A stretch of 64,000 nucleotides of DNA, taken from Cyanophora paradoxa CCMP329. Its lineage: Eukaryota > Plantae > Glaucophyta. Where the stretch lies: NCBI GenBank assembly GCA_004431415.1, contig QPMI01000436.1, positions 582,298 through 646,297 of the forward strand. Direction: 5' to 3'. The translations under genes were made by a program, and so were the position numbers. Every line of letters begins with the position of its first letter. The stretch's first letter is position 1. The notes under the pieces were generated by a model, which saw only the letters and a program-made list of their open reading frames with translations, had not been told where the DNA came from and made no database searches. Shown in pieces: positions 38,901-64,000 of the stretch.

Positions 38901-39323
38901 TCATCGGATCAGAAGCCAGCGCCGGCCGATCCCCTCGAGAGCCGGGCGCCCTCCCTCTGCACCCTCCTCCGGATCCGTCGGACCCCTGGTCATCGTATCT
39001 AGTGCTTATATCTACTTACTCTTGCTTCTTTGGAACTAGTGTCATCCGGCGCGCGCGCCGGGGCTGCTCCCCCATTCCCTCCGGATCCCTCCTCCGCCCC
39101 TTTCACGTCGGTCTCCCGATCACCCGCTGCCCTTTAAGGCTTCAACGTCAACGGTTGCAATTGGACTCGTGGTAATCGTATCTATAGCTCTATATATGAG
39201 GGCCATCAATGGGCCAAACGCGAAAAGTCAACTCCGAGAGCTCGAGACTCGGAAGTGACGCTTGGATTGCGGAGGTTCTTATAACCGCCGCAACAGCTGT
39301 GGGGGTACCCCTTCCGAGGCTGG

Positions 39324-39421
39324 CGATCGCGACGATCACGACCCTGGCGATCGCGATTTTCTCCCGATCGCGACCCTTTTCGATCGCGATTTCGAGATCG
39401 GGGACATTAATGCGATCGCGA
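39324..39421. repeat. Five copies of CGATCGCGA near the element's left end
   Basis: Copies at 39324, 39348, 39365, 39381 and 39413. Confidence 0.85.
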
Positions 39422-39552
39422 GAAAGGAAAAATCGGAAAAGGCCGAAAAGTGCCGTTTTCACGCGTGAAATCGATCGAAAACGAGGGTTCGAATCCCGGG
39501 CCCGGATTTGGACTTGGTCAGAATCTCGAGTCAAAATGGGAGAAAAATGTGA

Positions 39553-39632
39553 CCTGGACTTGGACTTGGGACTTGGGACTTGGGACTTGGACTTGGGACT
39601 TGGAAGAGTTGGAATCAGAGTCTGGACCCAAA
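39553..39632 (+). repeat. (G)GGACTT array 1 plus conserved tail
   Basis: Seven GG(G)ACTT units followed by GGAAGAGTTGGAATCAGAGTCTGGACCCA. Confidence 0.92.
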
Positions 39633-39703
39633 AGCGGGGAAATTTTCGGACGGGGAGAAAAATGTCAGGCAATCTCTATTACGATTTTCCCTTTGAGTTG
39701 AAT

Positions 39704-40149
39704 ATGGCATTCGAGAGGTTGCGCGAGTTCTGGCGTTGGCACCTCACGGGACATGACATCCCCGACGTAACACCAGAGCCAACACACAGGGCGTGCTTGA
39801 AGTCATCCGTCAATATCCGCGTCGATTCAATGAATGGATTGAGTTCCACGCGACGAGCCGTTTCCAGAGCCTCCCCGAGGCCATACGCGAAAATTTCGTG
39901 AGGCTGGTGGGACCAGGCTACGACAACCCTAACAATCATAGACCACGCCCAGCTGGCGTGACACGCGAAGCTCGAGAAGACCGTAGACTTTTCCGCAGGG
40001 AATTGAGAGAGGATAGACGGAGGCTTTCAATGGGGCTCCCGCAGATTGTGAGGGGTACAGCCCGGATTACGAGACTTACCAAGAATTGTACGGCTTCGAA
40101 AATCCCTTTGAGAGGGCACTACCAGGGTGAGGGCCAGGGGGGCCCCTGA
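39704..40149 (+). CDS. Viral hypothetical protein, frameshifted
   Basis: MAFERLREFWRWHLTG... continues in another frame as VLEVIRQYPRRFNEWIEF... Confidence 0.5.
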
Positions 40150-40466
40150 GGGTGTACCCCGGCCCGAGACTCGACCTTCGGCGGACGCACTCGGGCGATT
40201 TCCGTCAGGCCGGCTCCCTTTTTCTGCCTTCGGTCCAACGCTAAATTTGGCTTTTTCAGGCCAGTTGGCAACGTTTTCCGTTGCGAACTAGACCGCGAAA
40301 AAAATCGCCCACAAAACCGCGGTCCGCCGCCATTTTGGCTCACTCTTGAAACGGGTTCGCCGCCTTCTCTCAGCCCAAGGAAACCCCGCCTCTCCGAATT
40401 TTCACAAGTCCGCCCTCACAGTCACCTCACGTTTTGCCTTTGCTGATTTCTTTTCCCTTTGCGCAG

Positions 40467-41524
40467 ATGTCGATTCCCGCTGAGCTTGCCGAGGACTTCG
40501 CCTTTGTCCAAGCAACGTGGGCTAACTCCGGTGGCACTCAAGGGCTACCCCTGAGATGGAGCAGCGCGCCGACGCTCTGGGTACATCTACAATTATGCCA
40601 TCTTACGCGCCACTGGCCCCGAAGTGCAACTTCTCCCAAGTCCGCCTTCACGTCCAAGGCCAAGAAATCCAAGTCCAAGCAACCCAAGCCCGAGCCCCCG
40701 TCGACGTGCCCCCGTCCCCGGCTGGGTCAAGACCGCCAACGGCTGGGGCGACCCAAGCTTTTCGCCGAGTCTGCTGCCGAGACGCTCGCCTGGGCCTACC
40801 CCCTCAAGTCTTCACGAATTACCCCCTCCGTCATCGTCGTCATCTGCCCCTCAGCCCGTCGCCGAGCCCGCCCCGAGCCCGCCGATGACGCCAAGTCCGA
40901 GGCTCTGACGTCGAGTCTGACATCAACGACTTCATCGACTTTGACGTGCCGATTCCATACGACTCTGAGTCGTCTTCTGACTCTGAAGGCGACAACGAAA
41001 ACCCGACTCGCAAGCGCCGCATTATCAAGACCAAGTCAATCGTCAAGAAGAAGTTCATGGAGACTACGTCATTCACCGACAACTCCGAGCGCGTCAAGGA
41101 CCCCGCCAAGGCACACGAGAAGGACTTGAAGCTCGGCGCCGGCATTGCCCGTTCTCGCGTGACGTCACACTACAGCGAGCGCCTGACTCAGCACGTCAAG
41201 ACCATTGAGAAGCGCGTCCTCTGCAACGAGCTCCGCAAGGAGTTGGAGCGCAAGCGGCGCCACGAGCGCCTTGTCCAGTACCAGATCAACAAGGCGCGGA
41301 TCGCCGAGCGCAAGCAGAAGGAGGCGGCCGAGCTCAAGGCGCGCATCGAGGCTCAGCAGCAGCGCGAGGCAGAGGCGGCAGCGGCCTTGGCGGCGCAGCG
41401 CGAGCGCGAGCGGCAGGACTTGTGCAGGCAGCGCAGTCCCTTCCCGCATTCCCTTAAGTCGGCGCCCGAGGGCCTCATTGAGTTGGTTTCCGATGACGAT
41501 GACTCTGACTTTGAGATGCTGTAA
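40467..41524 (+). CDS. Viral disordered/coiled-coil protein with NLS-like and C-terminal SIM-like motifs, frameshifted
   Basis: MSIPAEL... through several frames to ...PTRKRRIIK...coiled coil...LIELVSDDDDSDFEML*. Confidence 0.6.
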
Positions 41525-41595
41525 ATAGTATTGCGTCATTCCATTGTACATACTTGTAAAAATTGGCCGACTATTCAGTTACGACTTGGCGCGAT

Positions 41596-41715
41596 CCTGG
41601 GACTTGGGACTTGGGACTTGGGACTTGGGACTTGGGACTTGGGACTTGGGAAGAGTTAGACTCAGGGTCTGGGCCCAGAATCTCTCTGGATCTGAGAGTT
41701 TGCCGCGCCAAGTCC
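41596..41715 (+). repeat. (GGGACTT)7 array 2 plus conserved tail
   Basis: Seven perfect heptamers at 41599-41647, then GGGAAGAGTTAGACTCAGGGTCTGGGCCCAGA. Confidence 0.95.
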
Positions 41716-42028: not shown

Positions 42029-42172
42029 GACTTGTCTGACAAATTTCTGATCCTGGAGAAAGTCTGGGCCGGGACCTGGGTTTCAACTCTTCCCAAGTCC
42101 CAAGTCCCAAGTCCAAGTCCCAAGTCCCAAGTCCCAAGTCCAAGTCCCAAGTCCCAAGTCCCAAGTCCCAGG
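42029..42172 (-). repeat. (G)GGACTT array 3 (11 units) plus tail, inverted relative to arrays 1 and 2
   Basis: AAGTCC(C) units at 42095-42169. The reverse-complement tail is GGGAAGAGTTGAAACCCAGGTCCCGGCCCAGA. Confidence 0.95.
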
Positions 42173-42193
42173 TTTTTCTGAACCTAGGGCAAA

Positions 42194-42557
42194 ATGGCCC
42201 TGCTCCGGTGCACCGACTCGCAAGACGTCGCCTACAACGTCCTGGTCAACTCGGACGTACCCCCGAGTGCCTTGGAGTTTCCCTGGAGAGTGGACAGGGA
42301 CAGGGTGAGCAAGACGTTTGGAGGCGCAAGCACTACCTCTCCCAGCTGATCCTCGGGAAGTCGCCACGTGGACGCTACGTGGAACACATCAACGGCAACC
42401 CGCTGGACTACAGGAGGGAGAACCTGCGCTGGGCATCAATGTCGGAGATTCGCAAGAAGAGGAGGGGTACGCCAATTTACAGGAGAAGAGCGAGGAGATT
42501 CGGGAGATGATGGAGGCGACACAGGTGCTAATGCAGCTTAGCCAGTCTAGACGCTAG
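42194..42557 (+). CDS. HNH (HNH_3-like) endonuclease-family protein, frameshifted and possibly inactive
   Basis: YVEHINGNPLDYRRENLRW resembles the DHINGNxLDNRRxNLR motif. Confidence 0.75.
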
Positions 42558-44094: not shown

Positions 44095-46224
44095 ATGCCC
44101 CGCTTCGTATTCGTGAAAAAGCAGGTGGTGCAGGCTCCGCAGTATGGCGTGGAGCCGATCTCGCTGACTGTGGGCAGGCCCCAGGTGCGATCGGGCTCCG
44201 TGCTCAACAACGGGAACAGTACGTACGGCTTTCAGCTGAACTGGGTCGCGGTCACCAACGCCGTCAAGTACAAGGTGTACAGGGCGACCAGCATCAACGG
44301 CCCTGGGATCTCGTGGCCACGGTGAATGCGCCAACCGTCACCTACACGGACTCTCCTTTAGTTTGGGGCCCAGCGACTCTACCGCGTGGCGGCGGTTCGC
44401 GAACAGGGCAGCAGCAGCACGGGCTCTGATGGCAAAGCCCCGCCCACAACCTACGCACAGTCGCTTCTCTACACCCACGAGGGTGCCATGAGCAATTACA
44501 TTCTCTTCCAAGGCATAGGCGGCTTCAGCCCGCAGATCGAAGCCTACACCACGCTCACGACCGCCACGGCCCAGACCTACGGCGATTTTATTGCCGGGGC
44601 GGCCCCGCGTCTTCGGGCTTCCCGAAACCCGCCATAGTCGTCACAATCAACTGGGTGGCCATGGAGGGCGCGGACTCGATTCGAATTTACAGGAACGGTA
44701 CGCCAATCGGATTTGCGAGCAGTGCCCTGTCTACCTCGTACATTGACGATAGCACTGCTCTTACGTGGGGCACGGAATACTCTTACCAGGTGGCCGGCAT
44801 CGTGGGCGGTGTCGAATACGACAAGTCCGATCCGCTCCTGGTCTGGACTATGCCAAACGCCCCACGAACGTGACGGCATCAGCACCCAACGACCAGCAGC
44901 AGCCTGTCAGCCTCAGCTGGACTGCGTCCACGGGAGCGACGGGATACAAGATTTACAGAGACGGGGCCTACCTCACAGACTCCGCGACCAACTCCTACAG
45001 CGACACGACCACCGTCTGGGGTACAGGGTACGAGTACCAGATCTCCGCGACGAACACGGGAGGGGAGGGCCGAAGAGTATTGCGGCGTACGTCACCACGG
45101 ACCCGGGGGCGCCCACTGGGCTCACTGCAACCCCCGCGGCGGGGCAGCACAGCCTGTTGTGCTCGAGTGGTCGGTGCCGGTGACGGGCGTCACCGTCTCC
45201 TACAACATCTACAGGGGTGGCGTGTTCCTTGCCAGCGACACGAGCAGCCCCTTTTCGGACACAACGACCGTTTACGGAACCACTTACACTTACACCATCA
45301 AGGGCGTCAACCAGATCGGCGAGGAAGGCCCTCAGTCCTCGTCTGCCAGTGCAACAACTGCAAACGCTCCTGTTTTGGGTACATTCTCCTACACCGGGCC
45401 GACCAGACTTTCGTAGTACCAACGGGGACTGTGGCTGTGCGTGTCATCGTATGGGCGGCCGGGGGTGGAGGCGGAGAACGCGCAGGTACGGGGGTCCGTG
45501 GAGGCGCGGGTGCTTGCGTAGTTGGTACATTGGCTGTGTCCTCGGGGAGACGCTCATCCTTGTTGTTGGATGCGGCGGCCCAAAGGGTGTATCGGGACTG
45601 CCACTGCTACCGTCTACGGAGGTGGTGGAAGGGGCTGGAGCCATAGCGTCGATCCGGAGTACAAAAACGGCGCCGGTGGTGGTCGTTCTGCAATTCAGCG
45701 CGTTGCAGGGACCGACTTGGTTGTTGCAGGGCCGGAGGTGGGGGTACATGTGATTCGAATGGCGGCGGGGGAGTAGGCGGGGGTTGACCGGTGGTGCGGC
45801 TGGGTTGGTTGGAGTAACCGGAGAGATACCGGCTCAAGGAGGCACCCAAACCGCTGGCGGAGCCGGTGTTGTGGCCTCAGGGGCCAGGCCCAGCAACCCG
45901 GGAACTTTGCGCCAAGGTGGAGAGACTGGGCCTGATTCAAGCGGCTACAGGTTCGGTGGTGGTGGTGGTGGTGGTTACTTCGGTGGAGGCTCTGGGTCCA
46001 GCAGGAGCGGAGTGTCAGAGAACCCAATAGCAAGAATGTTTGGAGGTGGCGGTGGCTCGAGCTACATAGGAAACTTGACGGATGCTACGGTGTATCCTGG
46101 GTCCGGCCAGGTGGCAGGAAATAGCGGAGACGCTCACTACGCAGCAGGCATTGGTAGGGGCGGCAACGGTGGCTCGTCTTTCAGCGACGGTGGCAACGGT
46201 CGAATTGTGATACTCGCGGTGTAG
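44095..46224 (+). CDS. Fibronectin type III repeats plus ALK/LTK-like glycine-rich domain (putative attachment protein), frameshifted
   Basis: Four FN3-like units (LSW...GATGYKIYRDG...YSD...YEYQISATN..GEG), then FSYTGADQTFVVP...WAAGGGGG...GGGGGYFGGG...GGGGSSYI...GNGRIVI. Confidence 0.8.
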
Positions 46225-46244
46225 TTATTCCTAGTTGTTCCAGA

Positions 46245-47303
46245 TCAGCTCGCCAGTGCCGCTACCTGGTCTTTGAGAGTTTGAACTTCTTGTGAAAGTT
46301 CCTGAATTGCCTTCAACGACAGGGAAATGAGCCTGTCGTAGTTTACCCGAGAAATCCATCCGCGTTCTCGAAAACGAGACTCGGGAAGACGCCTTGGACT
46401 TCCTGTGCGATGAGACCGTAATCCGTTTTCGAACCCCCGAGGATGTGTTCTTCCAGGTGAACGACACGGGATTCAGCTGCAGCAGAAGAGGGAGAATGCC
46501 CGACATGCTCGCGACATTTTCTTTCAGGCGGCTATCGCTCGACGAGTTTGTCAGGTATCCTTGAGCATCCGAATAAACGGCTCGGTTTCCATCGCCCGTG
46601 AGCGTCGAGACGATGAGCCGACCCGTGATGCCAACGCCGACGGTTCCGCACAGCAGTCGTTCGGTGCCGTTGTTTCTCAAGGATAGACCAGAGCTGACGC
46701 TTCCGCTATCAACGATTGAAGTGTTTGCTATGCTTAGGCCATTAGTAGGGCCTTCGATTGCCGAGGTAAATAGAGTACCTGTAACACCAACGCCAAGAGT
46801 CCCACAGAGGAGTCTATCGTTTTCGTTGTACTTTATAGCTACGCCTGAACCACCGCCATTTATGTACGGTGACGTTCCGGTAATTTGCAGCTTATCGTCC
46901 AATGTAACGATGCCCGCCAAGTTTGAAGCCCCGCTCACCCTAAGCCCCCCACCACGTTTGCTCCGCCTCCTTGCACATACAGAGCCGCATTCCCCTCCCC
47001 GTTCACAGTCCCATTAAAGGTCACCTGATTCGTGGTGTACCCGCTCCCGTCCCAGGCCCCGTTCGTGACGGTGAGCCTCTGCGTCCTCACGCGCCCCGGC
47101 ACGGCCGACCCGCCCTCCCGCGTGCGCATCTTGTCGCAGCGCAGCTCGCCGACGCGGACGAGGTCGGCCTCGGAAAAGGGGACGGCCGTGGCGTTGTAGG
47201 GGGCCTCGGTGGCCTGGTTTCCGAGGGTGGTCTCCTTAATCGTGTGATCGCCCTTGTGATTCACGCTGGCAGCATAGGTAAATAGAGGGACAGCGACCGA
47301 CAT
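46245..47303 (-). CDS. Fibre protein with C-terminal intramolecular chaperone (peptidase S74-like), frameshifted
   Basis: Beta-repeat shaft, then SSDSRLKENV...LNPVSFTWK...GLIAQEV...LKAIQELSQEVQTLK coiled-coil tail. Confidence 0.82.
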
Positions 47304-47327: not shown

Positions 47328-50300
47328 TTACATAAGCAGCTTGCCGATCGCGGTCCAATGAATAAAAAGCTGGACAATTTGGGTGGGCGTGACCGTCATT
47401 CTGGGTTGGAATCTCACTTTAACTGTAAAGCCAGTGTGACTCACCGCCGTGACGTTGGCCCGTAGAAATCGACATCCGTGCTGCCGCCGGGATTGATGTC
47501 GAACGAGGGGTTACGTTAATAACCGGCGTTGGGTTTGCTGGGGTCCCCAGTCCGCCTCCAGTGTCGTACGCCTGTCCGAATGTAATGTTGAACGTCACCG
47601 TGTATGTTGAATTGATGTTAAACTCCGTGTACGCAGCGTAGGAGTGGAAGGACGTGCCGTGCGTTATGTACGCATCCATGTTCACGTTTCTGTGCCCGTG
47701 GCTGGTGAGCGAGTACTCTGTGTGACTGTGCGTAGAGGGTGGGAAGGAAGTGGGTCGGTCGATGACATTATCCCAGTACACATTGTGACTGTGTGTAGAG
47801 GGGGGGAAGGTAAGTGGCTTGCCCGTTACGTTGTCCCAATCCACGGAGATGTTCGTCAAGTCCGGGGCCGTCCAGTCGCTGATCTGAGAGATGGTGTGCT
47901 GGTGGTCTGCGTGGGGATACGTACTCGGCTTCCCCGTGATGCTATCCCACGCCCACGTTGTTGGTATCACGGGTATCGTCGGCCTCCCGCTGAGATCTGC
48001 ATACGCCCCCGTGTGTGCCACCGTCGCCAGCTGCGGCACGGCAACGCCCACGGTGCTCACGGCCTGGCTCGCCCCCGGCGCCATGTGCCACTCGTAGTTC
48101 TGCGATGCAAACACGGGCTGGCCTGGCTCGGGCGCCCAGTACTCGATGCCTTTGGCGATCTTCTTGGTGTATGGTGCTGCAGGCCTGTCAACCAATTTAT
48201 CGACGTAGGCCTTGGGTACCAGCCAGTTTGCCTTGGGCTCTGCGAATTGATCCCGTTGTCTATGAAGGCCCCGTAATTCCTGAAGGCCTCGGCCTCCCAC
48301 CAATCCTGCATGCGGAAGGTCCCGGGAATCTCGAGGCGCGAGTTGGCGTCCGCCAGGCGGGCCACCTGCGCCCTCCGTTCGACGAGACGCCCGAGTGACG
48401 GATGGCCGAGCCGAATTCGCGCCTTAGGGCTTCGATGTGATTGATCCTGTTGAGGCCCTCCTGGTAGACGGCAATTAAGACGCGCTTCCGCCCCTTGGTC
48501 TCCTCCTTTATCATCTGCTTCAGGTCGCGCATAAGTCGACTCAGGGCGAGCGAAGTCGACCGAAGCCCTCCTGCATTTTAACGGTGAGCTGGGAGAGGAA
48601 GAGCACGGTCGCGCGATCGATTTCGAGCAGGGTCTTCTGGTCCTTGGGGTACGGTAATCGTTGATGCTGTTGTCGAGCGCGCGAATGAAGGCCTGCAGCT
48701 CCTTCGGCTCCTTGATTTCGTTTAACCGCAGCTCCTGGGCCAAGAGCGAGGCCATTTCGCGCGCCTCCGAGGGTCGTACACACCCAAAAATCCGGAGCCC
48801 AGCTCGCCCTCCAGCCGATTAATTCGGTTGCGCAGCTGGCTCGCCTCGTCGCCCCACGTCTCGACGCCCCAGTCGTAGATCTGTTGCGAGAGCTCCGCGA
48901 TGAACTGTATGGTGTCGGTCGCCCAGTCGACGGGGTACTTGAAAAAGTTCTTCACGATTTCTTCCGCGCTGCGCCGTTGATGATATCCACGATCACCTGC
49001 GCGATGGCGCCCGCGAGGATGGACAGGCCAAGTCCGCCCACCGTGCCGATCCTCATTTTCGTGAGGGCGCTCAGGGCGGACGACATGCCCGTCTGAAGGC
49101 CAAAGAGCCGACCGTCATGATCATCTGATCGCGGAACGTATCGAAGAACTCGGCCTCCCTATCTTGCCCTGCGAGAGCGCCTGGTAGGCCGAGAGCAGGC
49201 CGCCGGCCGTCGCCAGCCCAAGGCCCGCCGCCGCCGCGCCCGCCCGCCGCATGGCCCGCGAGCCCGTACCCCCGAGCCGGCGCCCACCAAGTCGATGCCC
49301 GCCCCCTGAAATAAATCGGCTGCCCCGAAAGACATGCCGTCGTTGTTCGCCGTACCCGCCGCCGAGAAGAGCGTCTCGGCGCTGAGGGCCTCCTTGGCCA
49401 CCCCGGGCCGCCTTGCCCTCGGGCGCCCCAGGTACGCGTCGCGCTGCTCTTTGGTGGTGAATCGCTCGAGGTCGAAATCGGCGAGGGCGTCGGCGGTGGC
49501 GCGGTTCCAGTCGCCGTAGGGCATGAGGGCGTTGCGCAAAATAACGTCCGAGTCGCCCATCACGCGCCTGTCGAGCGTCTGAAACACGCCCTCGGAGGGC
49601 AGGCGGGCGGTGCCCGGGCGCATCTCCTCCACGGAAACGTCGTCCCTCTCCGCGAGTGTGATGTCGTCTGGGCTGGCCAAGCCGACGCCCGCGCCCTCAT
49701 CGGCGTACGCCCTTCCCCTTCGTTTTAATATTTGATTGGCCTCCCGTTTCAATGCTTGGTACTCTGTCTCTACCTTGGTCTTTCTTGCCTCTTCCTCTGC
49801 CGCCTTGCGCTCTGCGATCTTCCGCCTCTGCTCTTCTATCTCGGCGTTGCGTCTCGCCGCGTTCTCCTTCGCCTGCTGCTTCCGCTCTTCAATCACCCTG
49901 TTTGCGTACTCCTTGTCCGCTTGGGCCTTTCTGTAGCGCTCCTCGATCTGACTCTTGGCCTCGTCTCCTCTCTTCCTTAGATCGCCCATGAATGCCGTCG
50001 TATCTATGTGAATCTTGTATTTGGCGGGTGGGTGCTCACGTTTGAAGGCCTCCAGATCGCGCACCATGGCATCGTACTGCGCGAGCCCCTCCGCTGGAAT
50101 GATGGCTCTTCGCATTTCCCAAAATTTGCTCAGCTTGCCCACGTAATCGACCATGGAGAGGTACGCGCTCTGTGCGCCCGCGCTCACCGTTTTCGGATTG
50201 GCTCGCAGCTCTGCCACAAACTTTCCCTTTTGCATCCGGTACAGTGACCATTCGAGGGCTCCCCGCCATAGGCTCACTTCCGTCCGCAGTTCGCGGTGCA

Positions 50301-52508
50301 TCTCCTCCACGTCGCCGTATGCTATCCAGATGGCATCGCTGATGGGCCTCTGAACAGCCTGACGCTCAAAGTTTTTCCACTTCTCATCGGCCATCTTTCT
50401 CCTCAGTTCTTCGGCGTCTTTCTGACCCCTTCCCGTCAGCTGATCCATAACGTAGCTAAAGTCGCGCATGTTCTCTTCCATGGCGCGGACCTGTCCCCGA
50501 TGCATTTCCTTCTTTCAGTTTTTGAGCTCCGAGCGGTAAAAATCCATCTGCGCCCCCTGAACGTCTCCAGTCGTCGCTTACGCTCCGCTACCTTCGGCTC
50601 CTCCAGCCGTGCAAATTCCTCGTCTGATGCAGTTTGCATTGCCTTCAGTCGTTCCTCTTCTGTCTTGGCAGCTGCCTCCTCGTCCGCCCTGCGCCGCTGC
50701 TCTAACGCGTCGAAGAGGGCCCTCTGATCCTCGAGCGTGAGGCCAATGAGCTCTTCCACCTGGTCGCTCCTACCCAGCCGCGCGAAGGGCAGCCTCTCGG
50801 CGGCCGGCCTCGGATCGGGCCTCGGCGTCGTCTGCGTCTCGGCCGTCCCCATGGGCGAGCGAGCCTCTGCCGTGGCCGCGTACTTGAGCAGCCTCTGTGC
50901 CAGCTCGTCCGCGTTGGCCTTGAATTTTTTCGACTGCTCGTCCGCGCGCTCGGCGGCCTCCTTTAAATTTTTGATTTCCTCCCGGAGCCTGTTCGCCTCC
51001 TGCACCGCCCCCGTTTGCAGCTCTCCTGCCTTTCTCCTCGTTTCCTCTTCCTCTTCCAGCAGCTGCCTTCTCGTCTCTGCCTCCTTTTCCAATTTCTTCT
51101 TCCTATCCTCGATCTCTTTCCTCTGCGCCTCAAGCAGCTCGGTGCCTGCGGTCAGCGCTTCAATTTCCTGCAGCTTTTTCGCCTTGGCGGCTTCCCTTTG
51201 CTCGTTTATCCTCTTCAGCTCCTCCTCGGCGTCGAGTATCATTTTCGTGCGCTCTTCCGCGACCTGGCGCTCTGCCGACCTTAGCGCGGTGAGGGCGCTC
51301 TCTTCCTGCCTTTGCGCGTCTGTCATCAGCTTGTTCGCTTCCGCCTTCTTCTCCGCGACCTCTGTCATTTCCTTGTCTTTCAGCTCGCTCCATTGCTTCT
51401 TTTCGTTCTCGAGTTTGTAGTACTCGCGCTGCGCGTCCTCGGTATCGAATTTAATGGGGGTCTCGCGTTCAGCTCGTCGATTTGCCTCACGAACCCTTCC
51501 GATCCTTGTAGTATTTGATGCCGCCTACGATGAGGGCGCCCCGAAGATGGCCGTTGAAGTGGCGAGGCCTGCTACCTTATCCATGCCCTCCCGCCTGAGC
51601 CGCCGCCACCCGAGCCGCTGCTGCCCCGCCCCGCCCACTGGCGTGCCGCTGGAGCCCCCTCCGCCCCCGTGCCTGTACCCCACCCCGGTGCCTGTACCCC
51701 CACCCCGGTGCCTGTACCCCACCTCCCGTGCTTCCACCACCCGTACCCCACCCGGAATCGCACCCGGCACCTTGGGCCCGCCGATGATGTCGTCGTACAG
51801 GTGGCGGTGCGCCCAGTCCGTGATGTCGGCCTTCACGTGCGGGTGCTTGACGAGGGCGTACCTCTCGTCGTGGAAGTGGTCCTTCAGCGCCCAGTTCTGC
51901 GTCTTCGCCCAGTCCGAGCGATCGGGGAGCACGTCGGGCGCCGTTGGGATGCGGCCCCCGCCCGTCGTCTCCGGCGTCTCGCCCGTCCTGTCGGCGCTCA
52001 GGGCGCGGATGTTGACCTTGAAGTGGTCGAACCACGCGAAAAACTCCTCCCTGTCGCGCCTGTACTGCTCGGGCTCCATGCTCGGCAGCGCCTGGCGGCT
52101 CCAGTAGATGTGGCGCAGGGGGCCCGCGATGCGCTCGAGTGCGTTGTACCCGGGCCTCACGTCTCCCTCTGCGCCCTTTAGAGTCAGTTTCACGAGGTTC
52201 AGGGTGGCATCCTTTGCGGTGACCGAGTTTGCGATTTTCACGTCGGCCGCCCTCTTGATAATGTTCCAGTCCACGCCCGTCTCGGTCGTCACGCCCCAGA
52301 GCCCCTTGATAATTGCGGTGAGGTCACCGTAATCGTCCAAGGTACCGACGGACGTCAGGAAATCGCTGTAGGTCGCGCCCTTGCGCAGCCTTATCTCATC
52401 CGCGTAAATTCCCCTCACGCTCAGGCTCCCGTCTATCGCGAAGGCACCGTTCAGCACCTCGTCCGGATTCGGGATGGCCATGCGCCAGGGGTCGTCGAGC
52501 ATCGACAT
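47328..52508 (-). CDS. Giant protein (about 1700 aa if single): Gly/Thr linker, long coiled coil, HxH phage-tail-fibre repeats and fibre-tip-like end; heavily frameshifted
   Basis: Overlapping same-strand ORFs with no intergenic gaps. E/K/R/A-rich coiled coil at about 49.7-51.5 kb; WDxITGKPxTFPPSTHSH repeats at 47.7-48.0 kb; ends ...LFIHWTAIGKLLM*. Confidence 0.6.
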
Positions 52509-53039: not shown

Positions 53040-53488
53040 CTACTTAGCGTAGGCCCAGAGGCCGAAGTTCTTGACGATGAAGGCGTTGTTCTTCTTGGTG
53101 GCGCCCGTGATGTCGGTGAAGCGCACGCGCAGCTCCTGGAATTTGTCGTACGCGACGTAATTCGGGCGCACGGCCATGGGCACCTCGAACCAGTAAAGGA
53201 TGGTGTTTTCCAGGCCGTCGTGGCCCACGTCGGAATCACGACCTTGTTGATGCACGCGTTCACGTTCGAGATGGTCGTGACGTTCAAATCGGGCACGTCC
53301 ATCAGCAGCACGTTTACGGTTTTCGCGGCGGTGGGGTCCGGAATCGCGGTCGTGTCCAGCTCCAGGTAGACTCCCTTGATCTGCAGCGTGTCGATGTCGG
53401 AGGGGATCTGGTTCAGCCTGAGGCGCCAGAAGCCCTCGGAATCCTGCGTCTCTCCGTTCGACTGGACGTAGAGGTTAACGCAGGACAT
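53040..53488 (-). CDS. Possible single jelly-roll minor capsid (penton-like) protein, one frameshift
   Basis: About 150 aa, alternating beta-strand pattern, C-terminal FQELRVRFTDITG reminiscent of penton-type proteins. Inference only. Confidence 0.4.
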
Positions 53489-54386: not shown

Positions 54387-56412
54387 TTATCCGCTACCCC
54401 TTCCCCTTCCGCGCCCCTTGCCTTTGCCGCGCCCTCGGCCCCTGGCCCTCAGGTCGCCGATTTCCGCGGCCTGCGGCGCGAAGCGGGGATCGTCCGCCTG
54501 GCCGGCGTCCGCCTGGAAAATCGTGAAGAGGTACCCGTCCGTGTTGTTGTCGGTGTTGTTCGTGTTTCGCGCGTGCGACCACTCTTTCAGTAAATCGCGC
54601 CTCTGCTTGTCGGGCAGCGTCTTTGAGAGGTACTCCTGCAGCTTGCTCGCGTAATTTTCCTCTGGGATCAGCGACGCAAGGACGGTGGGCGGATCTTTCC
54701 CATGCCTATCTTCTCTTCCGTCAGCATGCGCTCGAGCTCTGCGATTTCCACCATCGTATCGATGCTCGGTTGAGGCCCTGCCTCTGCCCTCTTCTGGTCT
54801 ACGAGGCGCTGCCCCGCCGCCGTGAATTTCGCGGACAGAATTTGGTGCAGCCGCTCGTACACCGTCGTGGTGCTCGGCTCCTTCTCCTTCAGCAGCACCA
54901 CCCAGTCGTAATTCGCCCACAGCACCTGCAAATTCGATATGTGATCGATCGTCACCAGCACGTGGGCGTGCAGCGCGCCGTCCGTCGGCCCCACCTCCAC
55001 GCCCCCTTGCACGCGAATTCCGATGATTGCGTTGGCGTACGTGTCGTCCTTGTACTTGCCGTTCTCTTCCTTCATATTGAAGCGTATGAACTTGTAGAAT
55101 TCTGCATCCGAGAGCACCTCTGCGAGGCTGTCGCGCAGCGCCGCCGCCTCGAATTCTCGCGCCTCTCCCAGGCGCTTGTGGGTGTTGAAGAGCACCCAGT
55201 AGCGCGACTGGCGCGCCTGTCGTATGTCGTACCGCGTGCTTCCGTCGGGATTCTTTTTGTTGAGGATGAAGACCGACCGCCCCGTCTCGCTGATTTCCGT
55301 GATCACCTTCTCGAGCGCCTCCAGCCCGTTTGCCTGCGCCGCCTGCAGTCCCGTTTTCGCCTTCTCTATGTTCTGCTTTACCTCTTGCGCGTCCGCGAAG
55401 GTTGCCATTAAATCTTCCATGCTCGGCGCCACGATTTTCGCCTTTCTGATTTTCGACTGCGCAGAGTTGGGCTCGATGACGGACGATCCGAAGTCAGCGG
55501 CCGTATCCTTTGCCTTTTTCGTGGTCTTTGGCTTCGGCCCGCCGAGCACGCTCTCGACCATGTGGTCGCGCGTCTGCTTGGAGACGGTGGCCGTGTCGCC
55601 CCTCTTTCGCCTCTGCAGGCCCAAGATCACGAGCAGGCCCTTGTTGCCGAGCAGCGTGACGCACTTCTGGCAGAGCCACGAGTTTCTGGGCGACACCGTG
55701 GGCACCTGCGCCGGCTTCTTGTCCTTGATGAGGGGTACGGCTCCTGGCCCTTTTTCTTTCCCTTGCCGTTTTGCTTGGCCGCCACGCGTTTGCCTTCTCT
55801 ATGACCGCGACGTACTCTTCGTACACGGCATCCTTCCTCGCCTGCGCTGCCTCCCTCGCGGCGATTTTCTCTGGCGTGTTGGCCCCCTTGGCGCTCGGCA
55901 CGGGCGTGGCTTCGTACATGAGGCGAAGGCAGCGGTAGCAGATTGGCGGCGATTTCTGCGCGCTCTGGTACGTGCGCGGTATGGCGCGCAGTCGCTCCTC
56001 GGGGAGTTTATCGTACTCGATTTCGCTGTGGATGCTCCAGAGGGTCGCGGGCTCGTGGTATGATTTATCGAGCAGCGATGGGAGCATCTGAACTTCTTTG
56101 GTGGCCGAGAGCTTGATGTAATCGGATATGCTCTTCTGCTGCTGGAATATGCCGTCCTCGCCCTGAACCAGCACGTATCGCTTCGGAATCTCAACGACGG
56201 GCGTCTCGAGCTCGTCCACGCCGGTATCGGGCGCGTTTCCCTTTGCCTTTCCCTTTCCCTTCCCTTGCCCTTGCCCTTCGGCTTAGGCTCCGGCTCCTCT
56301 TCCTCTTCCTCCTCTTCTTCCTCCGACTCGGAGGACGGGACGTGGGCTCCTCTTCCTCTGACTCGCTCGAGCTCTCTGGCTTCTTCTTGCGGCCTCGGCG
56401 CTTCGGAGGCAT
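54387..56412 (-). CDS. Long HUH-superfamily endonuclease (Rep-like) with basic N-terminus and two CxxC motifs, frameshifted
   Basis: Motif I-like YWVLFNTH, motif II GALHAHVLV, motif III LQEYLSK (YxxK); CYRC and CQKC; N-terminal PPKRRGRKKK. Confidence 0.78.
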
Positions 56413-56433: not shown

Positions 56434-57269
56434 TTACACGAGCTTTACAGCGCCCGTCTCGAGGGCCTCTACCGTCTTCGTAATGTACAGCTGCAGCAGA
56501 TCCTTAAGGTTGCTCTGCGGCAGCAATTTTACGTCTACGTGCATCTGCCTGGCGGTTTCTCGCTTCCTGTAGCCCGTCTCCTTGCCCGTCCACTGCATGC
56601 CGAGGGCGTCCTTTCTCCGTATCGGCCGCACCGCCGTCTTCTGGTACTCCTCCCCGAACCAGTCGTCCTTGTAGAAATTCGGCAGGCCGCCCTGCCCTCC
56701 GTTTGCATGAACTTGATGAGGAAATCCGACGCCTTCTTGCCGTCGAATTGCACGCGCGAGTAGTGCACCAGCGTGAGCAGGATGTGCGCGTGGAGCCGCC
56801 CCGACCGCGGCCCGTACTCGATGCCGATGTTCGCGTTGCCCTTCTCCACGTGCGTGTCGTACTGGTCGGACTTGAAATCGAAGCCCTTGGGGTTCGCCTT
56901 GTCGGGGTACACCCCATCTTTATGCACCGCGCCAGCTGCCTGTCGTCGTAGAAGAGGGCCTCCAGCCCCTGTGAAACGCGTCCTGCACCTTGGAGCCCTC
57001 TCCCTGCTCCGCGGCTTGTAGTTGGTCTGGATGGTGATCATGAAATTCGACTCGCGCTGCGGCCGATCCTCCCGTTCAGTTTCCTCACGGGCGCCGCGTC
57101 CAGCACCTTCTGGAACCACGTCTTGTCGGGCGCCAGCACCTTGTCGTTGATGTTGCCCACCACGATGTGCGTCTCTACCGGGAGCGGCCGGAGGCGTCCA
57201 TGCGGAGGTGAGGGTTCGGTGCCCGGCTTGCCTGTTTGCTGCCACGCCCCTCGCGATGAGGTTGAGCAT
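56434..57269 (-). CDS. HUH-superfamily endonuclease (rolling-circle Rep-like), frameshifted
   Basis: Motif I-like FMITIQTN, IEYGPRSGRLHAHILL (motif II), LQLYITK (motif III). Confidence 0.8.
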
Positions 57270-57498: not shown

Positions 57499-58324
57499 AT
57501 GGCAGACTCTAACGAAATCGATCTCCTCCTCCGAAACTTCGAGCAGATCCAGCGCTACGGCGCCATCCTTCACGACGAGGGGGACCCAGACTTCGACACT
57601 CCGGCACCGTACCCCGCCGCCGCCGCCGCCATCGCCAACTCCTACCTCGGGGCCGGAGAGCGCCCCCGCAAGCGCAACCGCCGCACCCAAGGCCCCAAGG
57701 CGAAGCCGCTGTCCCCTGCGGAAATTGCAGCTCTACCGCCCTCGTTGGTGTTCACCTGGATGGGGATCTGGTTTGCCAAGGCTGCGGTCTGGTCCTGGAT
57801 CTTTATTATCCGGACCATCAACCCTGGCTGTCAGCGAGCTCCACAGCAACTACCTGCGCAAGTACCACGTTTCCGAGCGACTTAAGCAGCACTGCCTGGA
57901 GGATTCTCCGGTACCCGAGGACGTGCTGGCAGCTATTGCGAGGCGCATGGCGGGGAAGGAGTGGAGCAAAGACAATATCCGCCAAGTTCTCCGGCTCTGA
58001 AGCAGCAGAAGTACATCGAGCGCTGGGCGCAGATCAAGTGGCGCATCACGGGCGAGCGCCCGCCTCCGATGAGCGCGGAGGACATGGACCGGGTGCAGGA
58101 GATGTTCGCCCTGGTGGAGGTCCCTTCAGCATGTTCAAGTCGCAGGGCAGGAAGAACATGCTCAACTACAATTACGTTTTCAGGCAGATTTTCGTGCTGC
58201 TGGATTTGCCCCAGCACCTCCCCTTTTTCCCTTGCTCAAGAGCAGGCAGAAACTCTCGGAGTTAGATTCGATTTGGAACAGGATCTGCGAGTACAACGAC
58301 TGGCATTTCTTTCCTACTCTTTAG
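57499..58324 (+). CDS. VLTF3: Viral late transcription factor 3-like protein, frameshifted
   Basis: Zn ribbon DLVCQGCGLVL; YLRKYHVSERLKQ; QKYIERWAQI; RKNMLNYNYVFRQIF...FFPLLKSRQKL..LDSIWNRICEYNDWHFFPTL*. Confidence 0.88.
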
Positions 58325-58331: not shown

Positions 58332-58668
58332 TTAGTGATCGCGGCGGCCTTCCGCTCGAGCGCCTGCTTGATTCCGAAGCTGGCGCTGGTAGCCTTGATT
58401 AGCATGTTCGTCTGCCGTGTGTGAATCCGAGGATGAACATAATTCCGCCGGTGGGGTCGTCGTCGAAGAACTTGAGGGTGAGCACGTATTTCGAGAGCAG
58501 GCCGAGGGAGAGGCCGTTGACGGCGACTTGCGCGGCGAGCTCGGCTGCGTGGCCCGCCCTGTTTTCGCCTTCGTGCGAGGAGAAGGCGGCGTCGATGAGG
58601 GAGCCGGATGCCAGGCCGAGGGCGTACTGCACGATAGCCTGGGAGAGCCCTAGGAGCACCTTTGACAT
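58332..58668 (-). CDS. Small hydrophobic (membrane) viral protein, frameshifted
   Basis: Hydrophobic G/A/L-rich helices, DPTGGIMFILG. Confidence 0.55.
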
Positions 58669-59078: not shown

Positions 59079-60144
59079 TCAGGCGAGGCCGCGGTGCTTC
59101 CTGAAATTATCTATCATGCCGAGGAGCGTCTTGTCCACCGTGCCGTCGTCCGGACCCACGAGATTTTCTCCGTTGACGGTTTCGCCCTCCAGTACTCCTT
59201 GGATCCGATGCGGAAGGGGGCGGCTCCTCGGCCTTGTAGACGTACAAAACGTCCAGAGGGTTCGTAGAGTTGTTGGAAGAATCGATGATAAGGCAGTGGT
59301 TATCCTGCGTGTACTTATCGAGCAGGTAGTAGAAGGCGCGCTGGGAGATGATGTCGCCCCACTCCTTTGCGAGGGCCTCGCGCTGCATCGCCTGCGAGCA
59401 CTTGAAAATGACAGCCAGATCAGTATTGGAGCGCAGGACGGGATTGATGCCCTTGGCATACTGCGTCGTGATAAGGGTCATGATTTTGTAGTGGCGCCCC
59501 GCCACGAAGAGCTCGTTGAGGGCCTCGTCGTACCGCAGCCGAGCGTCGGAAATCACGTCGTCGAGCAGCACGAAAAATCGCGGGTCGACGGGATCCTCCT
59601 TTCCCGCGAGCACGTCTTCGGACTTGTTGTGCTGCATGATCGCCTGCTGCCTCCTGAATAAATGGAAGAGCACGCCCGGGTTGTACTTGGGCCAGATGAA
59701 GCGCTGCGGGATGTACTGCTTCCAGTAGCCGTTCAGGCGATCGGTCTGGCTGATCACGATACCCCCCGGGAAGGTGCCGGAGAGGTTGAACATGAGATCG
59801 CGGAGGAAGAAGGACTTGCCCGTGCGCCGCTTGCCGACGCAGACGACCGTGGCGTCGGACTTGACGGTGTTCACGTCGAACCACTTGAGCTCGGGCAGGC
59901 AGGCCATGCGCTCGATGCCTCCCGTCTTCGAGTTGTCGAGGAAGGCGTTGACCTGCTCGGGCGTGAGCTGCTGGCCGTCCTCTGTCATGCCCATGGCGCA
60001 GCTGGCGCCGGCGGCGGGGCCGTGCCCGAGCCCGTGCCGGTGGCCTGGCCGGCGGGGCGGGGCCGCGGGCGCTGCGCCTGCGGGCTGGGCGGGCTGGGGC
60101 TTGGCCGCCTTCGGCTTCTTCGGCTTCTTGGGGTCCTTGGCCAT
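59079..60144 (-). CDS. A32: A32-like (FtsK/HerA) genome-packaging ATPase; frameshift near C-terminus
   Basis: Walker A VGKRRTGKS, Walker B FVLLDDV, GRHYKI, ITTQY, LRSNTD. Confidence 0.93.
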
Positions 60145-60369: not shown

Positions 60370-60400
60370 CCCCTTCATTCAGATTTTCTTGCGACCCTGG

Positions 60401-60876
60401 ATGAAGATCCTCGGCGTGGATGTGGGGGTCATCAATTTCGCATGGTGCCTCATCGAATTCGATCCGCAGACAAAGGAATCCCAGATTCTCGACTGGCAGA
60501 AGATCGCCCTCTTCCCGTCTGCGCGCTGCTGTGGCCGCCTGGTTGCGCGCCTGGTGGAGGTTACTCGCGGCCATAGCGCCTTCGGCCTTCCCGACCAGAT
60601 CGCGATCGAGGGCCAGAGGACGGGAATCAATCGCTGCATCGAGTGCACGCTCCACGCCCTGCTGTACGGGCGTGCGCGGATCGTGAGCCCGCGCGCCATC
60701 AAGCACTTCTTCAAGATCTCGAACCCGAGCTACAAGGAGCGCAAGCGGGCGCCGTGGACAAGTGCCGCGACCTCGTACCCGCCGAGCTCGCCGACATCGC
60801 GGATCGAAACGGCAAGCTCGACGACCTCTGCGACGCCTACTTAATCGCCCTCTACGCCGCGCTCAATCCGTTGTGA
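60401..60876 (+). CDS. Poxvirus A22/RuvC-like Holliday junction resolvase, one frameshift
   Basis: MKILGVDVGVINFAWC, IAIEGQ, YKERK, KLDDLCDAYLIA catalytic motifs. Confidence 0.9.
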
Positions 60877-61075
60877 TCCATTGTGATTTCTAGGCCCCGC
60901 CGCCAGATGGGATCCTCGTGCCGCAAGCCCAGGTCCCTCTGCTGCGAAATCTGCCGCTGCCCCAGACCAAGCGCGGCTGGGTGCTCAAGGCGGGCGTCTA
61001 CGTCTGCTGCCCCGGTGCGCCGTCCGCTACTACGCACTTTTTTCTGAAGGCTGTCTACACCCGTAGCTAGATCCC

Positions 61076-61400
61076 ATGGAGCACGCCACTACTGCTTCAA
61101 GTGCCGCTCCAACACCAAGCTCGCCAACGTCGAGGTGCGTACCAGCAAGAACAACCGCCAGGTGGCCGTCGCTCCTGCACGCAATGCAGCGGCCGCGTCT
61201 CGCGCTTCATGCGCCGGGTCCTCGAGGAGGGGCCCGGGAGACCAGCCCTCCGCCGCAGCGCCCGCAGGTGACCGACGCCGCTGGCCGGCCGCCGGCTCGA
61301 GCCAGGCACCGGCAGCCCCTACGGCCCGAAGCCCCCGCGGCGCCCGGCAGAAGGCCAAGGCGGCCCCCGCGGAGGGCGACCGAGCCCGCTCGAGGCCCAG
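61076..61400 (+). CDS. DUF5679-like zinc-ribbon protein, frameshifted
   Basis: HYCFKCRSNTKLANVEVRTSKNNRQVAV.SCTQCSGRVSRF. Confidence 0.65.
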
Positions 61401-61677
61401 CCCAAGCGCCAGCGCGCGCCGAGGAAGGCGGCGAGCGAGCCTGCGATTCTTCAGCAGTGATTCGGCGGCGCAACTGCCCTGCCACTGCTTCGTCTGCGAC
61501 TACCCCCCACCTGCTTCCCGGGCCACCTGCAGTTCGGCCACGAGATCTCGGTGGCGCGCGTGGGCGGGCGGGCCCGCCTCGTCTGCAGGCGCTGCGCGCG
61601 CGGCTCTTCGCGGATTTTCGCAGGATCCGCGACAGGGAGCTCACGGGCAGTATTTCTAAGTCCCTCCCAAATTGAGA

Positions 61678-61919
61678 AATGGCCTCCTGCTGTTCGATAG
61701 GGACATGTACCAAATGCAGAACCGATTCGACGGCATCTACCCCGAGCGCATGCCGCAGGAGCAGTTCCCGCCCGCACTGGCGGACCACCGCACGCACGGC
61801 CTGCGCAGGCCCGGGCGGGCAGCTGATGTGACGCCGGGGGCGCGCGGCGGAGCGCGACTGGTCGCCCTCTGGATTATAGCGGGGATCCTGGTGGGGTACC
61901 TCCTCTTCGACCAGTGTAA
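61678..61919 (+). CDS. Small C-terminally anchored membrane protein
   Basis: C-terminal LVALWIIAGILVGYLLF; upstream TATTTCTAAG motif. Confidence 0.5.
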
Positions 61920-62270
61920 TTTCTCAGTGACCCCGTACCCGATGTCTCGATCTATCCCTTATTGGGCCCAATCGATACGCAAATTGAGATGCTGCGCGCT
62001 CGCATGCAGAGCTTACGCTCGAAGAGGATCCACGGATGTACCCGAGATCAAGGCGGGGTGGCCACGCTGCCGACGGATATCGTCGAGACATTCGCGATTG
62101 GTGTACAGACTGCAGGACGAGGTCCGTGCACGGCTCTGGCAAATCGTGATGGGGCAGAGGGCCGCGGCTACCGTAGCTTCGCCGACCAGAGGGACGCGGC
62201 CGAGCGCAGGTGGAGAGGCAGTTCCCGAGACGTCGGGGGCGCCAACCATATTTTTCTGTGATGGGTAAAC

Positions 62271-62534
62271 ATGCCGGAGGCGCAGAAGAAGCCGCGAAAA
62301 AGGCGCCCAGAACGGGCAGAGCGGCCACCAAGGCGGAGTGAAGAGGCGAAGGAGAAGCTGAAGGGCCGCCCGAATTTCCTAGGACCGAAGCCGCTGTACG
62401 AGGACGTCTCGCCGGCGAAATATTCGTGGCGATGCGCCCGACGAAGCAGGGAAGAAGGGGGCGAGAAGAAGGACGGGAAGGAAGACAAGCAAGACGATAA
62501 AATTTCAAAGCCAGCTCCTAAGAAGTGCAAATGA
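62271..62534 (+). CDS. Small lysine-rich viral protein
   Basis: 87-aa ORF, upstream TTTTTCTG motif. Confidence 0.45.
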   Translation: MPEAQKKPRKRRPERAERPPRRSEEAKEKLKGRPNFLGPKPLYEDVSPAKYSWRCARRSREEGGEKKDGKEDKQDDKISKPAPKKCK

Positions 62535-64000
62535 GGGGGCTCGCCTCGCGTTTCGCGCCGCGCAACGTGCTCGCGATCCCGGGGGGCGGGGACTCGCACA
62601 TCACGCCCTTCGAGAGCGACAAGTACGCGCACTTTCAGCAGCTGATGAAGACGGCGCTGGCGAGGGCCACGCCGGAAATTCGGTTCGAGGAGCGCGATCA
62701 ATCGGACAAGCTCGCCGAGGTGGAGGCGCAGGCCATCGCCAACGCGTACTACATCAACAAGTTCCAGCAGATGGAGTCGAGCCTCGACGAGGAGTACGAG
62801 GAGGGCTTCCGCGCCTGGCTGATGGGCCAGTCGGCCTTCACCGCGAACCTGAAGGCCAAGGAGCGGGCGCCTGCGACGTGGACGGCAAGAACCTGACGGT
62901 GCTGCCGGCGTGCGGGAGTTCTGCAAGTCGAAGGAGGATCAGATCACCGAATTCCTGAAGCGCAAGAAGCGCCTCGAGACGCTGGCCCGATGAACCTCGA
63001 GGACGCGTACTACTACTACAAGTACATCATCACACGGCGAGGAGTTCAAGCCCACGAGCATCTACGCGCGCGAGAACAAGAAGCCCGAGGAGCTGATCGG
63101 AGGGAAGTACGACCCCGACTGGACGAACCGCAACACGCGCCAGCCCTTCGCCCAGGCCGAGCCGCCCTCGAGCTCGGACAGCGAGGGGCCGGGGCCGGAC
63201 GAGAGCCGCCAGCGCGACGTACCCAGGGAGAAAAGGCGGGCGAAGAAGCGGATGGACAAGGAACAGTACATCAAGGCCCGCGCGAGCAGAAGGTGCGCAT
63301 CACGGACGGGGACAACGAGGCCATCGAGGCCAGTTTCCCGGAGGCGGCCATGGGCAGAGCAATCAAGGCGGGCAAGGCGCGCGCGAGGCCCTCATTCAGA
63401 AGGCCCTGCCATCCAAGGAACCAGAGACGAAATGATCGAGTCAGACTCCGACAACGAAGGGGGGGCCCCGCCTCCGGGGCCTCCGCCTCCGCGCCTCCGC
63501 CCCCGGGCCGAAGACGCCACCGCTGCAGCCGCAGCCCGGCCCCTCGCAGCCCCGGACACGGTGGCCCGGCCGTCGGCGCCCCAGCGGAGCAGCAGCCCCC
63601 GCCGCCGCCCCCGCCGCCACCCCCGCCGCCGCGAGCCACAGGCGGGGCCCTCGCGCCCGCCAGAGGTGGTGGCGGCCGAGCGGTGGCCGTTGCGGCGGCA
63701 AGGGCCGTGCTCGAGCGGGTGCCCGTCGCCGTCCAGGCTCAACTCGCAAACGGCGGGGATAGAAATCGCCCCCTCGTCCCGCGCGAGATGGAAGCCATGG
63801 ACAAGCGCAGGGCCGCGTACAAGGATACGGGGCGGAGACCCGGTATACGACGATGGACTTAAACGATGCGCTTGAACTGGCCGCCAAGAAGGTGAAAGAG
63901 GCGACAGAAGCTCGCCGTGCGGGGCTGCTGAAGAAAATTCGCTCGGTGCTCCAGGCAATCCAGCCAGTCCAGACGATCCCATGGACGAGGAGGCGGAAGC
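62531..64000 (+). CDS. Viral hypothetical protein, frameshifted, runs off the window
   Basis: Ordered N-terminal part (FRAWLMGQS...LTVLPGVREF...PMNLEDAYYYYKYII) followed by a Pro/acidic low-complexity region. Confidence 0.6.

Follow-up and report, generated by a model that had tools for sequence, protein, structure and literature searches.

Cyanophora paradoxa CCMP329 carries, in a 64-kb stretch of its assembly (GCA_004431415.1, contig QPMI01000436.1, 582,298 to 646,297 of the forward strand; hereafter, the window), a compact viral block that runs from position 39,191 to the window's end and encodes an A32 packaging ATPase, VLTF3, RuvC, a tandem pair of HUH and HUH_long endonucleases and fibre genes (Table 1). 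An earlier reading of this sequence (the original prediction) had proposed a 'Mriyavirus/Yaravirus-like' element integrated beside spliced host genes, and on the host side of the junction an intron-rich gene does end at 38,900, among host genes with long G/C runs. The character of the window switches at about 39.2 kb: CTAG falls from 5.8 per kb on the left to 0.64 on the right, AAAAT/ATTTT rises from 0.31 to 2.46 per kb, and the viral-type composition begins right at the junction.

Viral genes and a precise left end

The gene calls of the original prediction (A32 ATPase, VLTF3, A22/RuvC and HUH Reps) were all borne out by Pfam or profile matches and motifs. Pfam was run on 51 frames and on 130 more, the second scan covering the sequence outside 44.0–46.2 kb and 57.4–60.9 kb, from which selected frames had entered the first; frames under 75 aa lay mostly outside these scans, and the PHROG scan comprised 29 frames. 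Among the 51 frames, Pfam recovered Pox_A32, HNH_3, fn3 and DUF5679, together with an RNase-H-fold resolvase and, weakly, Pox_VLTF3; the further 130 added an S74 chaperone. The ATPase (59,107–60,144) matches Pox_A32 with E = 5.7e-5, has the Walker A motif GKRRTGKS and scores 310 bits against a gamadvirus-like ATPase profile. Convergent with it lies VLTF3, in four frameshifted pieces with E values of 1e-8 to 6e-12 each, matched by 78 of 81 related viral loci. RuvC matches a cluster that Pfam names Pox_A22 (E = 5.8e-13) and retains the catalytic D/E/DD residues across a frameshift. The short and long HUH genes match a profile of 10 gamadvirus-like HUH proteins with E values of 5.7e-13 and 2.1e-12, respectively; motif I, motif II (LHAH) and a single-tyrosine motif III (YxxK, past a frameshift) are visible in both. 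An atlas search with HUH_long found nothing. The Pfam scans detected no PolB, RNA polymerase, integrase, tyrosine recombinase, rve domain or helicase in the 24.8 kb of the block within the window, in agreement with the original prediction that no integrase is visible. Most viral genes between 43,356 and 62,531 start in an AAATG context preceded, some 20 bases upstream, by ATTTT(T)C, likely a viral promoter or translation signal.

Nearly every viral gene in the window is broken by single-base indels. Most of these frameshifts are probably assembly errors rather than decay, because the sister ATPases and capsids described below are intact, because an indel relative to all four sequencing runs also occurs in unique host DNA, at 38,568, and because the assembly is of the PacBio RSII/Canu type with majority-rule correction (PMC6704402; this and the other papers cited were available in part).

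To locate the boundary, contigs from four DNA runs (2012, 2019, 2024 and 2024) were aligned to window positions 36,500–39,540. Summed depth was 19–103 over the last three host-side bins and 1,872–23,266 beyond the junction, a step at 39,191 of about 100-fold in all four runs (range 75- to 280-fold); depth is not copy number, and it covers the element's first 350 bases (to 39,540). Among the matches listed, at least 5, 3, 4 and 6 contigs of the respective runs have loose ends before 39,190/39,191. Where several contigs were pooled, their agreement at these ends was 0.53–0.67; therefore, different host flanks meet the same base. In all four runs a 409-nt contig at host depth spans 38,826 to 39,219, reaching 29 letters into the element, as would be expected of a 31-mer assembly at a repeat edge. 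The left end is precise, starting with TATATA at 39,191; the boundary would be 39,197 if TATATA is host target. The junction of the original prediction thus exists and is reproduced as contiguous with the host gene by short-read contigs, but its position shifts from 39,198 to seven bases further left. Two host-side intervals with raised depth and loose ends (38,030–38,131 and 38,642–38,845) are low-complexity C-rich sequence, not a second element.

The element begins with TATATA followed by TGAGGGCC, with TG directly after TATATA at 39,197. No further TATATA was found within 39,191–64,000, and the first 70 nt do not recur in the window. These 70 nt fold with −12.7 kcal/mol (z = −3.36, 1 of 200 shuffles equally good; opposite strand, z = −2.09) into two subterminal hairpins. 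They are followed by direct copies of CGATCGCG, a motif also frequent in the host part (13 of its 21 matches lie left of the junction), and by three (GGGACTT)n boxes, the third of them inverted, that lie inside 3 kb of the end and reach up to the HNH gene. The canonical circovirus/geminivirus nonanucleotide was not found, Rfam returned 0 matches and a search of IMG/VR with the terminal motif found no close relatives. Telomere-mediated integration was considered and rejected: the array is GGGACTT, the glaucophyte telomere repeat is TTAGGG (PMC3622300) and the insertion site is an internal one. A single contig, from one of the runs, follows 39,191–39,251 and then departs from the element into TATATA and unrelated sequence, possibly an excision footprint or a mini-copy with TATATA on both sides.

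Table 1. Features of the viral block, in window coordinates
Feature	Position	Strand	Evidence
Provirus, left part (24.8 kb), continuing past the window edge	39191..64000	.	depth step, loose ends, composition shift
TATATA common to copies at the junction: target motif or the element's first bases	39191..39196	+	contigs with different flanks meeting before 39190/39191, all four runs
Two subterminal hairpins	39200..39259	+	folding of first 70 nt
Five direct CGATCGCG copies, putatively iteron-like	39324..39420	+	repeat search
(GGGACTT)n array, box 1, then GGAAGAGTT...TCTGG-like tail	39556..39604	+	sequence repeats
Frameshifted open reading frame (ORF), long coiled coil	40467..41524	+	no Pfam or PHROG match
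(GGGACTT)n array, box 2	41598..41651	+	sequence repeats
(GGGACTT)n array, box 3, inverted	42091..42170	-	87% over 101 nt to box 2
HNH endonuclease	42190..42510	+	HNH_3 E 2.4e-7; four PHROG HNH families
Fibronectin-III and glycine-rich fibre-like gene, frameshifted	44095..46224	+	fn3 E 0.001, Gly_rich_2 E 0.008; phage tail PHROGs to E 5.5e-9
Fibre gene with S74 intramolecular chaperone	46231..47303	-	Peptidase_S74 E 7.3e-6; tail PHROGs
Phage-tail-like repeat protein, frameshifted	47419..48755	-	phrog_14 E 2.1e-11
ORFs, largely coiled coil	49159..52508	-	no Pfam or PHROG match
Beta-rich ORF, ~150 aa, conceivably a minor capsid protein (guess)	53040..53488	-	sequence only
HUH_long: N-terminal extension and C-terminal HUH domain, ~600 aa across frameshifts	54600..56412	-	profile, motifs
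Short HUH endonuclease, frameshifted	56470..57269	-	profile, motifs
VLTF3, several frameshifts	57499..58324	+	profiles
Small hydrophobic protein, tentatively Mriya_50-like	58399..58668	-	tblastn E 2e-6
A32 packaging ATPase; one frameshift near the 3′ end relative to intact sister copies	59079..60144	-	Pfam, profile
RuvC/A22 Holliday junction resolvase	60401..60876	+	profile
DUF5679 zinc-finger-like ORF	61076..61660	+	E 5e-4; family also in gamadvirus-like loci
Mriya_1-like gene (label from gene order); capsid gene next in sister copies	62531..64000	+	sister proteins E to 8e-11 against cluster C5

Sister copies and the capsid gene

The ATPase is 97–100% identical to proteins of C. paradoxa, and its core is 100% identical to EukProt entries so labelled. 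Its relatives fall into one cluster with 18 members (15 listed) and seven more with one Cyanophora model each. One model, P0127 on contig tig00020629, carries the window's own frameshifts; therefore, the window probably lies on that contig. Among the models listed, the ATPase occurs on 22 contigs and the capsid on 20, with both on 12 (3–5 model numbers apart) and a union of 30. Nine full-length ATPases are 97.2–99.4% identical and twelve capsids 83–99.8%. The element is thus one of a large, young, high-copy provirus family present at about 30 or more genomic places. Of the original prediction's endogenous copy in a probable glaucophyte, the endogenous state stands and the sister proteins bear C. 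paradoxa accessions, but the single insertion gives way to this family.

The capsid gene was traced through a fused model, P0138, which ends in a capsid fragment; a search with this fragment led to Capsid_N proteins in clusters with 25 rows, among them the window's own upstream ORF. In P0168, a protein matching the window's last gene is fused to the capsid; therefore, the capsid is expected about 0.5 kb right of the window, if the window copy continues. The protein has 457 aa and 28 matches among 1.84 billion proteins, the distant ones 21–34% identical. Its predicted fold (mean predicted local distance difference test score, 71) has as top matches exclusively Nucleocytoviricota capsids, at a template modelling score of about 0.67, from a folding alignment that included giant-virus capsids; an atlas search returned capsid-like clusters with recognition under the tool's mark. 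By Capsid_N and predicted fold, the gene directly after the window's last gene in sister copies is clearly a Nucleocytoviricota-type double jelly-roll capsid, the major capsid protein that the original prediction had suggested looking for. With it, the element measures at least about 27 kb, compared with the 35–45 kb given for Mriyaviricetes.

Close relatives were found neither in IMG/VR with the capsid nor in JGI metagenomes with the ATPase, which returned 2 loci about 50% identical; a phage collection gave one weak Mollivirus match only. Two ATPases, P0003 and P0004, 90% and 83% identical to those of Cyanophora and located on an ENA contig (3.4 kb) and a Logan contig (8.2 kb), are relatives beyond the Cyanophora assembly. 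Some copies have capsids only 56–59% identical (P0173, P0174 and P0175) and Mriya_1-like proteins 66–69% identical in the N-terminal part (P0140–P0142), with ATPases 97–99% identical; by sequence, this suggests several subtypes and module exchange among copies.

A mriyavirus-like lineage beside Gamadviridae

An ATPase query recovered 80 IMG/VR loci with a gene order agreeing with the Gamadviridae table of PMC11253617, as far as that source was available. Pfam confirmed their capsid, A22, YqaJ and VLTF3 clusters; the labels Mriya_1, Mriya_50, SSB, minor capsid and VLTF2 are readings from gene order. With profiles built from these loci, VLTF3, the ATPase and RuvC were detected in the window itself and the Mriya_1-like gene by way of the sister copies; there was no match to capsid, PDDEXK, SSB, minor capsid, Mriya_48 or VLTF2. 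The HUH order, short then long, is that of the 5 loci with a complete HUH_long.

In a tree of 52 ATPase rows, the element groups with gamadvirus-like sequences to the exclusion of 14 giant-virus rows (Shimodaira–Hasegawa-like approximate likelihood ratio support, 99), on a long branch of its own together with the two relatives from outside; a position outside all gamadvirus-like rows was not rejected (approximately unbiased test, p = 0.425, 28 rows). The VLTF3 tree, with X at breaks, has the same split (support 100, 30 of 31 rows), and profile scores against gamadvirus-like and giant-virus sequences are 310 versus 153 bits for the ATPase and 165 versus 85 bits for VLTF3. A quick capsid tree (FastTree), built without Yaraviridae rows, places the capsid on the gamadvirus side with weak support (92) and long branches. 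Eight loci (L087–L094) considered as mriyaviruses were rejected as giant-virus contigs.

The element shares with Mriyaviricetes the double jelly-roll capsid (in sister copies), the grouping of its A32 ATPase, VLTF3, RuvC and HUH motifs I–III. Its core genes group apart from giant viruses, unlike those of an endogenous giant element of Megaviricetes. Nor, as originally predicted, is the pattern that of Polintons, Polinton-like viruses (PLVs) or virophages: the capsid is of the type of nucleocytoplasmic large DNA viruses (NCLDVs), not of the PLV type, and the 24.8 kb in the window hold no pPolB or primase–helicase and no rve or tyrosine recombinase (YR) integrase.

The closest comparison is with Gamadviridae (Pleurochrysis endemic viruses and Phaglo-G in the available part of PMC11253617). 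Shared are an ATPase 49–55% identical, VLTF3 convergent with it, RuvC, a short HUH followed by an HUH_long with C-terminal HUH domain, a Mriya_1-like gene upstream of the capsid and no PolB seen. By contrast, the Cyanophora element forms a long branch that leaves the group at its base or falls outside it, its 457-aa capsid is barely similar, its HUH_long has about 600 aa against 1,590–1,860, and it carries phage-like fibre genes and occupies a glaucophyte host, whose chromosomes contain about 30 or more copies. The gamadvirus block of Mriya_1, PDDEXK, PEV_27, SSB, ATPase, VLTF3 and minor capsid has a different order here: between Mriya_1 and the ATPase, PDDEXK, PEV_27 and SSB are missing and RuvC lies instead. 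Yaraviridae share capsid, ATPase, VLTF3, RuvC and HUH, according to the table in the same source rather than a yaravirus sequence, but have one HUH gene, not two. The PLV-like Zoravirus, VC134 and VC218 groups (10.64898/2026.06.19.733378, as available) have an NCLDV-like capsid module and some have HUH; they differ in mostly carrying RVE or YR integrases and Mriya_48, and RuvC, VLTF3 and tandem HUH together are not their described signature. We classify the element as a mriyavirus-like lineage and place it next to Gamadviridae rather than within the family. Of the label 'Mriyavirus/Yaravirus-like', the first half holds, but the two HUH genes and an ATPase about 50% identical place the element nearer Gamadviridae than anything tied to Yaravirus.

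Elsewhere in the block, the predicted model of the C-terminal 211 aa of the ORF at 40,467 is one long helix, and PHROGs indicate phage-tail similarity for the three fibre-like genes. The beta-rich ORF at 53,040 showed no similarity to the gamadvirus minor capsid candidate. The small hydrophobic protein at 58,399 is common to 12 of 81 related loci and gave no match to the cluster taken for Mriya_50. The host part contains a leucine-rich-repeat and RING finger gene (1,686–3,683, minus strand) and an AT-rich stretch (7.7–10.3 kb) that resembles nested non-coding transposons. This stretch encloses a 519-bp element (8,878–9,396) whose terminal inverted repeats read CAGTGATGG and whose target is duplicated over 8 bp (CCCGCCGC); we take it to be a hAT-like miniature inverted-repeat transposable element.

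Proposed insertion at TATATA and its alternatives

We propose that a dwarf virus with Nucleocytoviricota genes, the HUH and HUH_long arrangement of Gamadviridae and the capsid of the sister copies gave rise to the many near-identical copies in which several host flanks join the same terminal base. Following the available account of mriyaviruses (PMC11253617), it would replicate in the nucleus by HUH-primed rolling circle with host polymerase, RuvC resolving concatemers and the ATPase packaging them. An HUH enzyme acting on the subterminal hairpins or repeats would then join the circle junction 3′ of a host TATATA. We are largely confident that such a virus underlies a young, high-copy mriyavirus-like provirus family with a precise TATATA left end and targeted insertion. 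That one of the two HUH endonucleases catalyses this insertion, in analogy to the Y1 transposases of IS200/IS605 at 4–5 base targets, has a likelihood that we put a little short of even. The likeness lies in a single-tyrosine HUH enzyme, subterminal hairpins and a fixed short motif against the left end; the differences are that IS200/IS605 are bacterial elements of 1–2 kb and that no TnpA sequence match to the element's genes was found. Integration by the Rep protein of adeno-associated virus is a second precedent. IS608 inserts 3′ of the fixed tetranucleotide TTAC (PMC5027513, available part), and mriyaviruses are reported, in the available text of 10.64898/2026.06.19.733378, to be without integration genes; no literature tying SIRV1 ORF119 to TnpA was found. 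The most far-reaching version, a new family-level lineage of Mriyaviricetes in which the duplicated HUH protein serves, with no integrase, as a Y1-type transposase that pastes a 30–40 kb double-stranded DNA virus behind TATATA of the host, with copies that are latent, excisable and particle-making, seems unlikely.

Several results weigh against the proposal. Left junctions only are in the data, with neither a right junction nor an empty site, so that target, duplication and terminus are not separable. The depth data end at 39,540, and the 100-fold repeat is linked to the viral genes by contiguity, composition and the lack of a second end, not by reads; the 29 letters of the junction contig are two under a 31-letter bridging bar. 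Among the 25 capsid-cluster rows listed, none comes from tig00020629, the window's matching contig. Capsid profile scores are weak, at 20–25 bits against gamadviruses and 30–35 against giant viruses with a profile free of query matches. The HUH profile matched no solved HUH structure in PDB, with chance aprataxin matches only. The PDDEXK, SSB, Mriya_48, VLTF2 and minor capsid profiles found no match in the window; PDDEXK, Mriya_48 and VLTF2, like an SF3/SF2 helicase and Mriya_51, may lie rightward or be too divergent. The trees comprise no Yaraviridae, Zora, Zephyr or PLV rows. Finally, the right part beyond the window may hold a tyrosine recombinase or rve integrase such as those of Zora, VC134 and VC218 (10.64898/2026.06.19.733378).

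Three alternatives concern what the element is. A chimeric junction, in which the assembly had joined free virus to a host contig, would suit the shortfall at the bridging bar and the many indels in the window copy, but is scarcely credible given the same 409-nt junction contig at host depth in runs from 2012, 2019 and 2024, one of which may be the assembly's own data. Very unlikely, too, is a separate host transposon that adjoins or interrupts the viral block and whose end supplies the high-copy sequence at 39,191. The reads do cover just the first 350 bases, the depth step exceeds the number of gene copies listed and the ORF at 40,467 has no viral AAATG start context; yet the 24.8 kb contain no second end or second TATATA, composition is of viral type from the junction on, and the repeat boxes extend to the HNH gene. 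If the element were instead a neighbouring lineage of PLV type (Zora, Zephyr or unnamed) with an ATPase, VLTF3 and HUH module acquired from gamadviruses, this would account for the short, very divergent capsid (457 aa versus about 550), the PLV-style fibre genes and the failure to find several core genes of mriyaviruses in the window. We consider this improbable, as ATPase, VLTF3, RuvC, two HUH genes, the Mriya_1-like gene and DUF5679 all match gamadvirus-like loci, and the capsid falls, weakly, on their side.

Two further alternatives keep the virus and change its route of entry. A tyrosine recombinase or rve/DDE integrase, encoded in the right part or lent by resident Polinton-like viruses, could insert it; TATATA would then be a crossover core or duplicated target and TG at 39,197 the true end. 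The TG directly after TATATA, the contig with TATATA also after 39,251 and the palindromic hexamer at the end, of a kind that suits tyrosine recombinases and rve/DDE enzymes, point this way. So do single terminal contigs at 53–58 times host depth, about twice 30 copies, as from inverted ends, although depth is not copy number. Related groups encode RVE or YR (10.64898/2026.06.19.733378), and the available supplement of PMC10120064 lists 366 PLV capsid genes, of other types, for the Cyanophora assembly. Set against this are the absence of such an enzyme from the 24.8 kb in the window and the report, in the former source, of mriyaviruses without them; we place this route appreciably below an even chance. 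Accidental entry by host break repair during infection, with TATATA as the end of a linear viral genome, needs no enzyme and has been proposed for Nucleocytoviricota regions without mobility genes (10.1101/2025.04.19.649669, available text). Several flanks at the same base without trimming, and about 30 contigs with near-identical genes, make it decidedly improbable here.

Mriyaviricetes-related regions in a Glaucocystophyceae assembly have already been stated (10.1101/2025.04.19.649669). Host group and virus class agree with ours, and the family is very likely the same; the available text gives no copy number, ends, target motif or HUH, and the locus described here may appear in its figures or supplements. 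Phaeocystis is known to harbour endogenous Yaravirus-like or dwarf elements (10.1101/2022.07.28.501842; PMC12480563), and giant-virus-like regions have been noted in Cyanophora, where viral genes are reported to be methylated and silent (PMC12344493, available part), which fits latency and burial alike. Cyanophora is not named in the two supplements of PMC11253617 that were available. Our search, which left most subscription papers outside its reach, found no literature on copy number, exact end, shared or target motif, distinct lineage or integration route. The bare presence of such elements is already known; what appears to be new is that the end is precise and bound to a motif, and that the lineage is distinct.

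Among living viruses, mriyaviruses are regarded as the nearest kin of the giant viruses' ancestors. Rolling-circle replication has only been predicted for them, and endogenous mriyavirus copies have been interpreted as accidental. We know of no virus isolated from a glaucophyte. Our results suggest that some of the 'giant virus' regions reported in Cyanophora are these dwarf elements. A culturable alga with about 30 or more near-identical copies and a base-exact end makes integrase-less integration by Nucleocytoviricota directly testable and, in the same organism, the role of the second HUH gene and whether glaucophytes carry an inducible virus.

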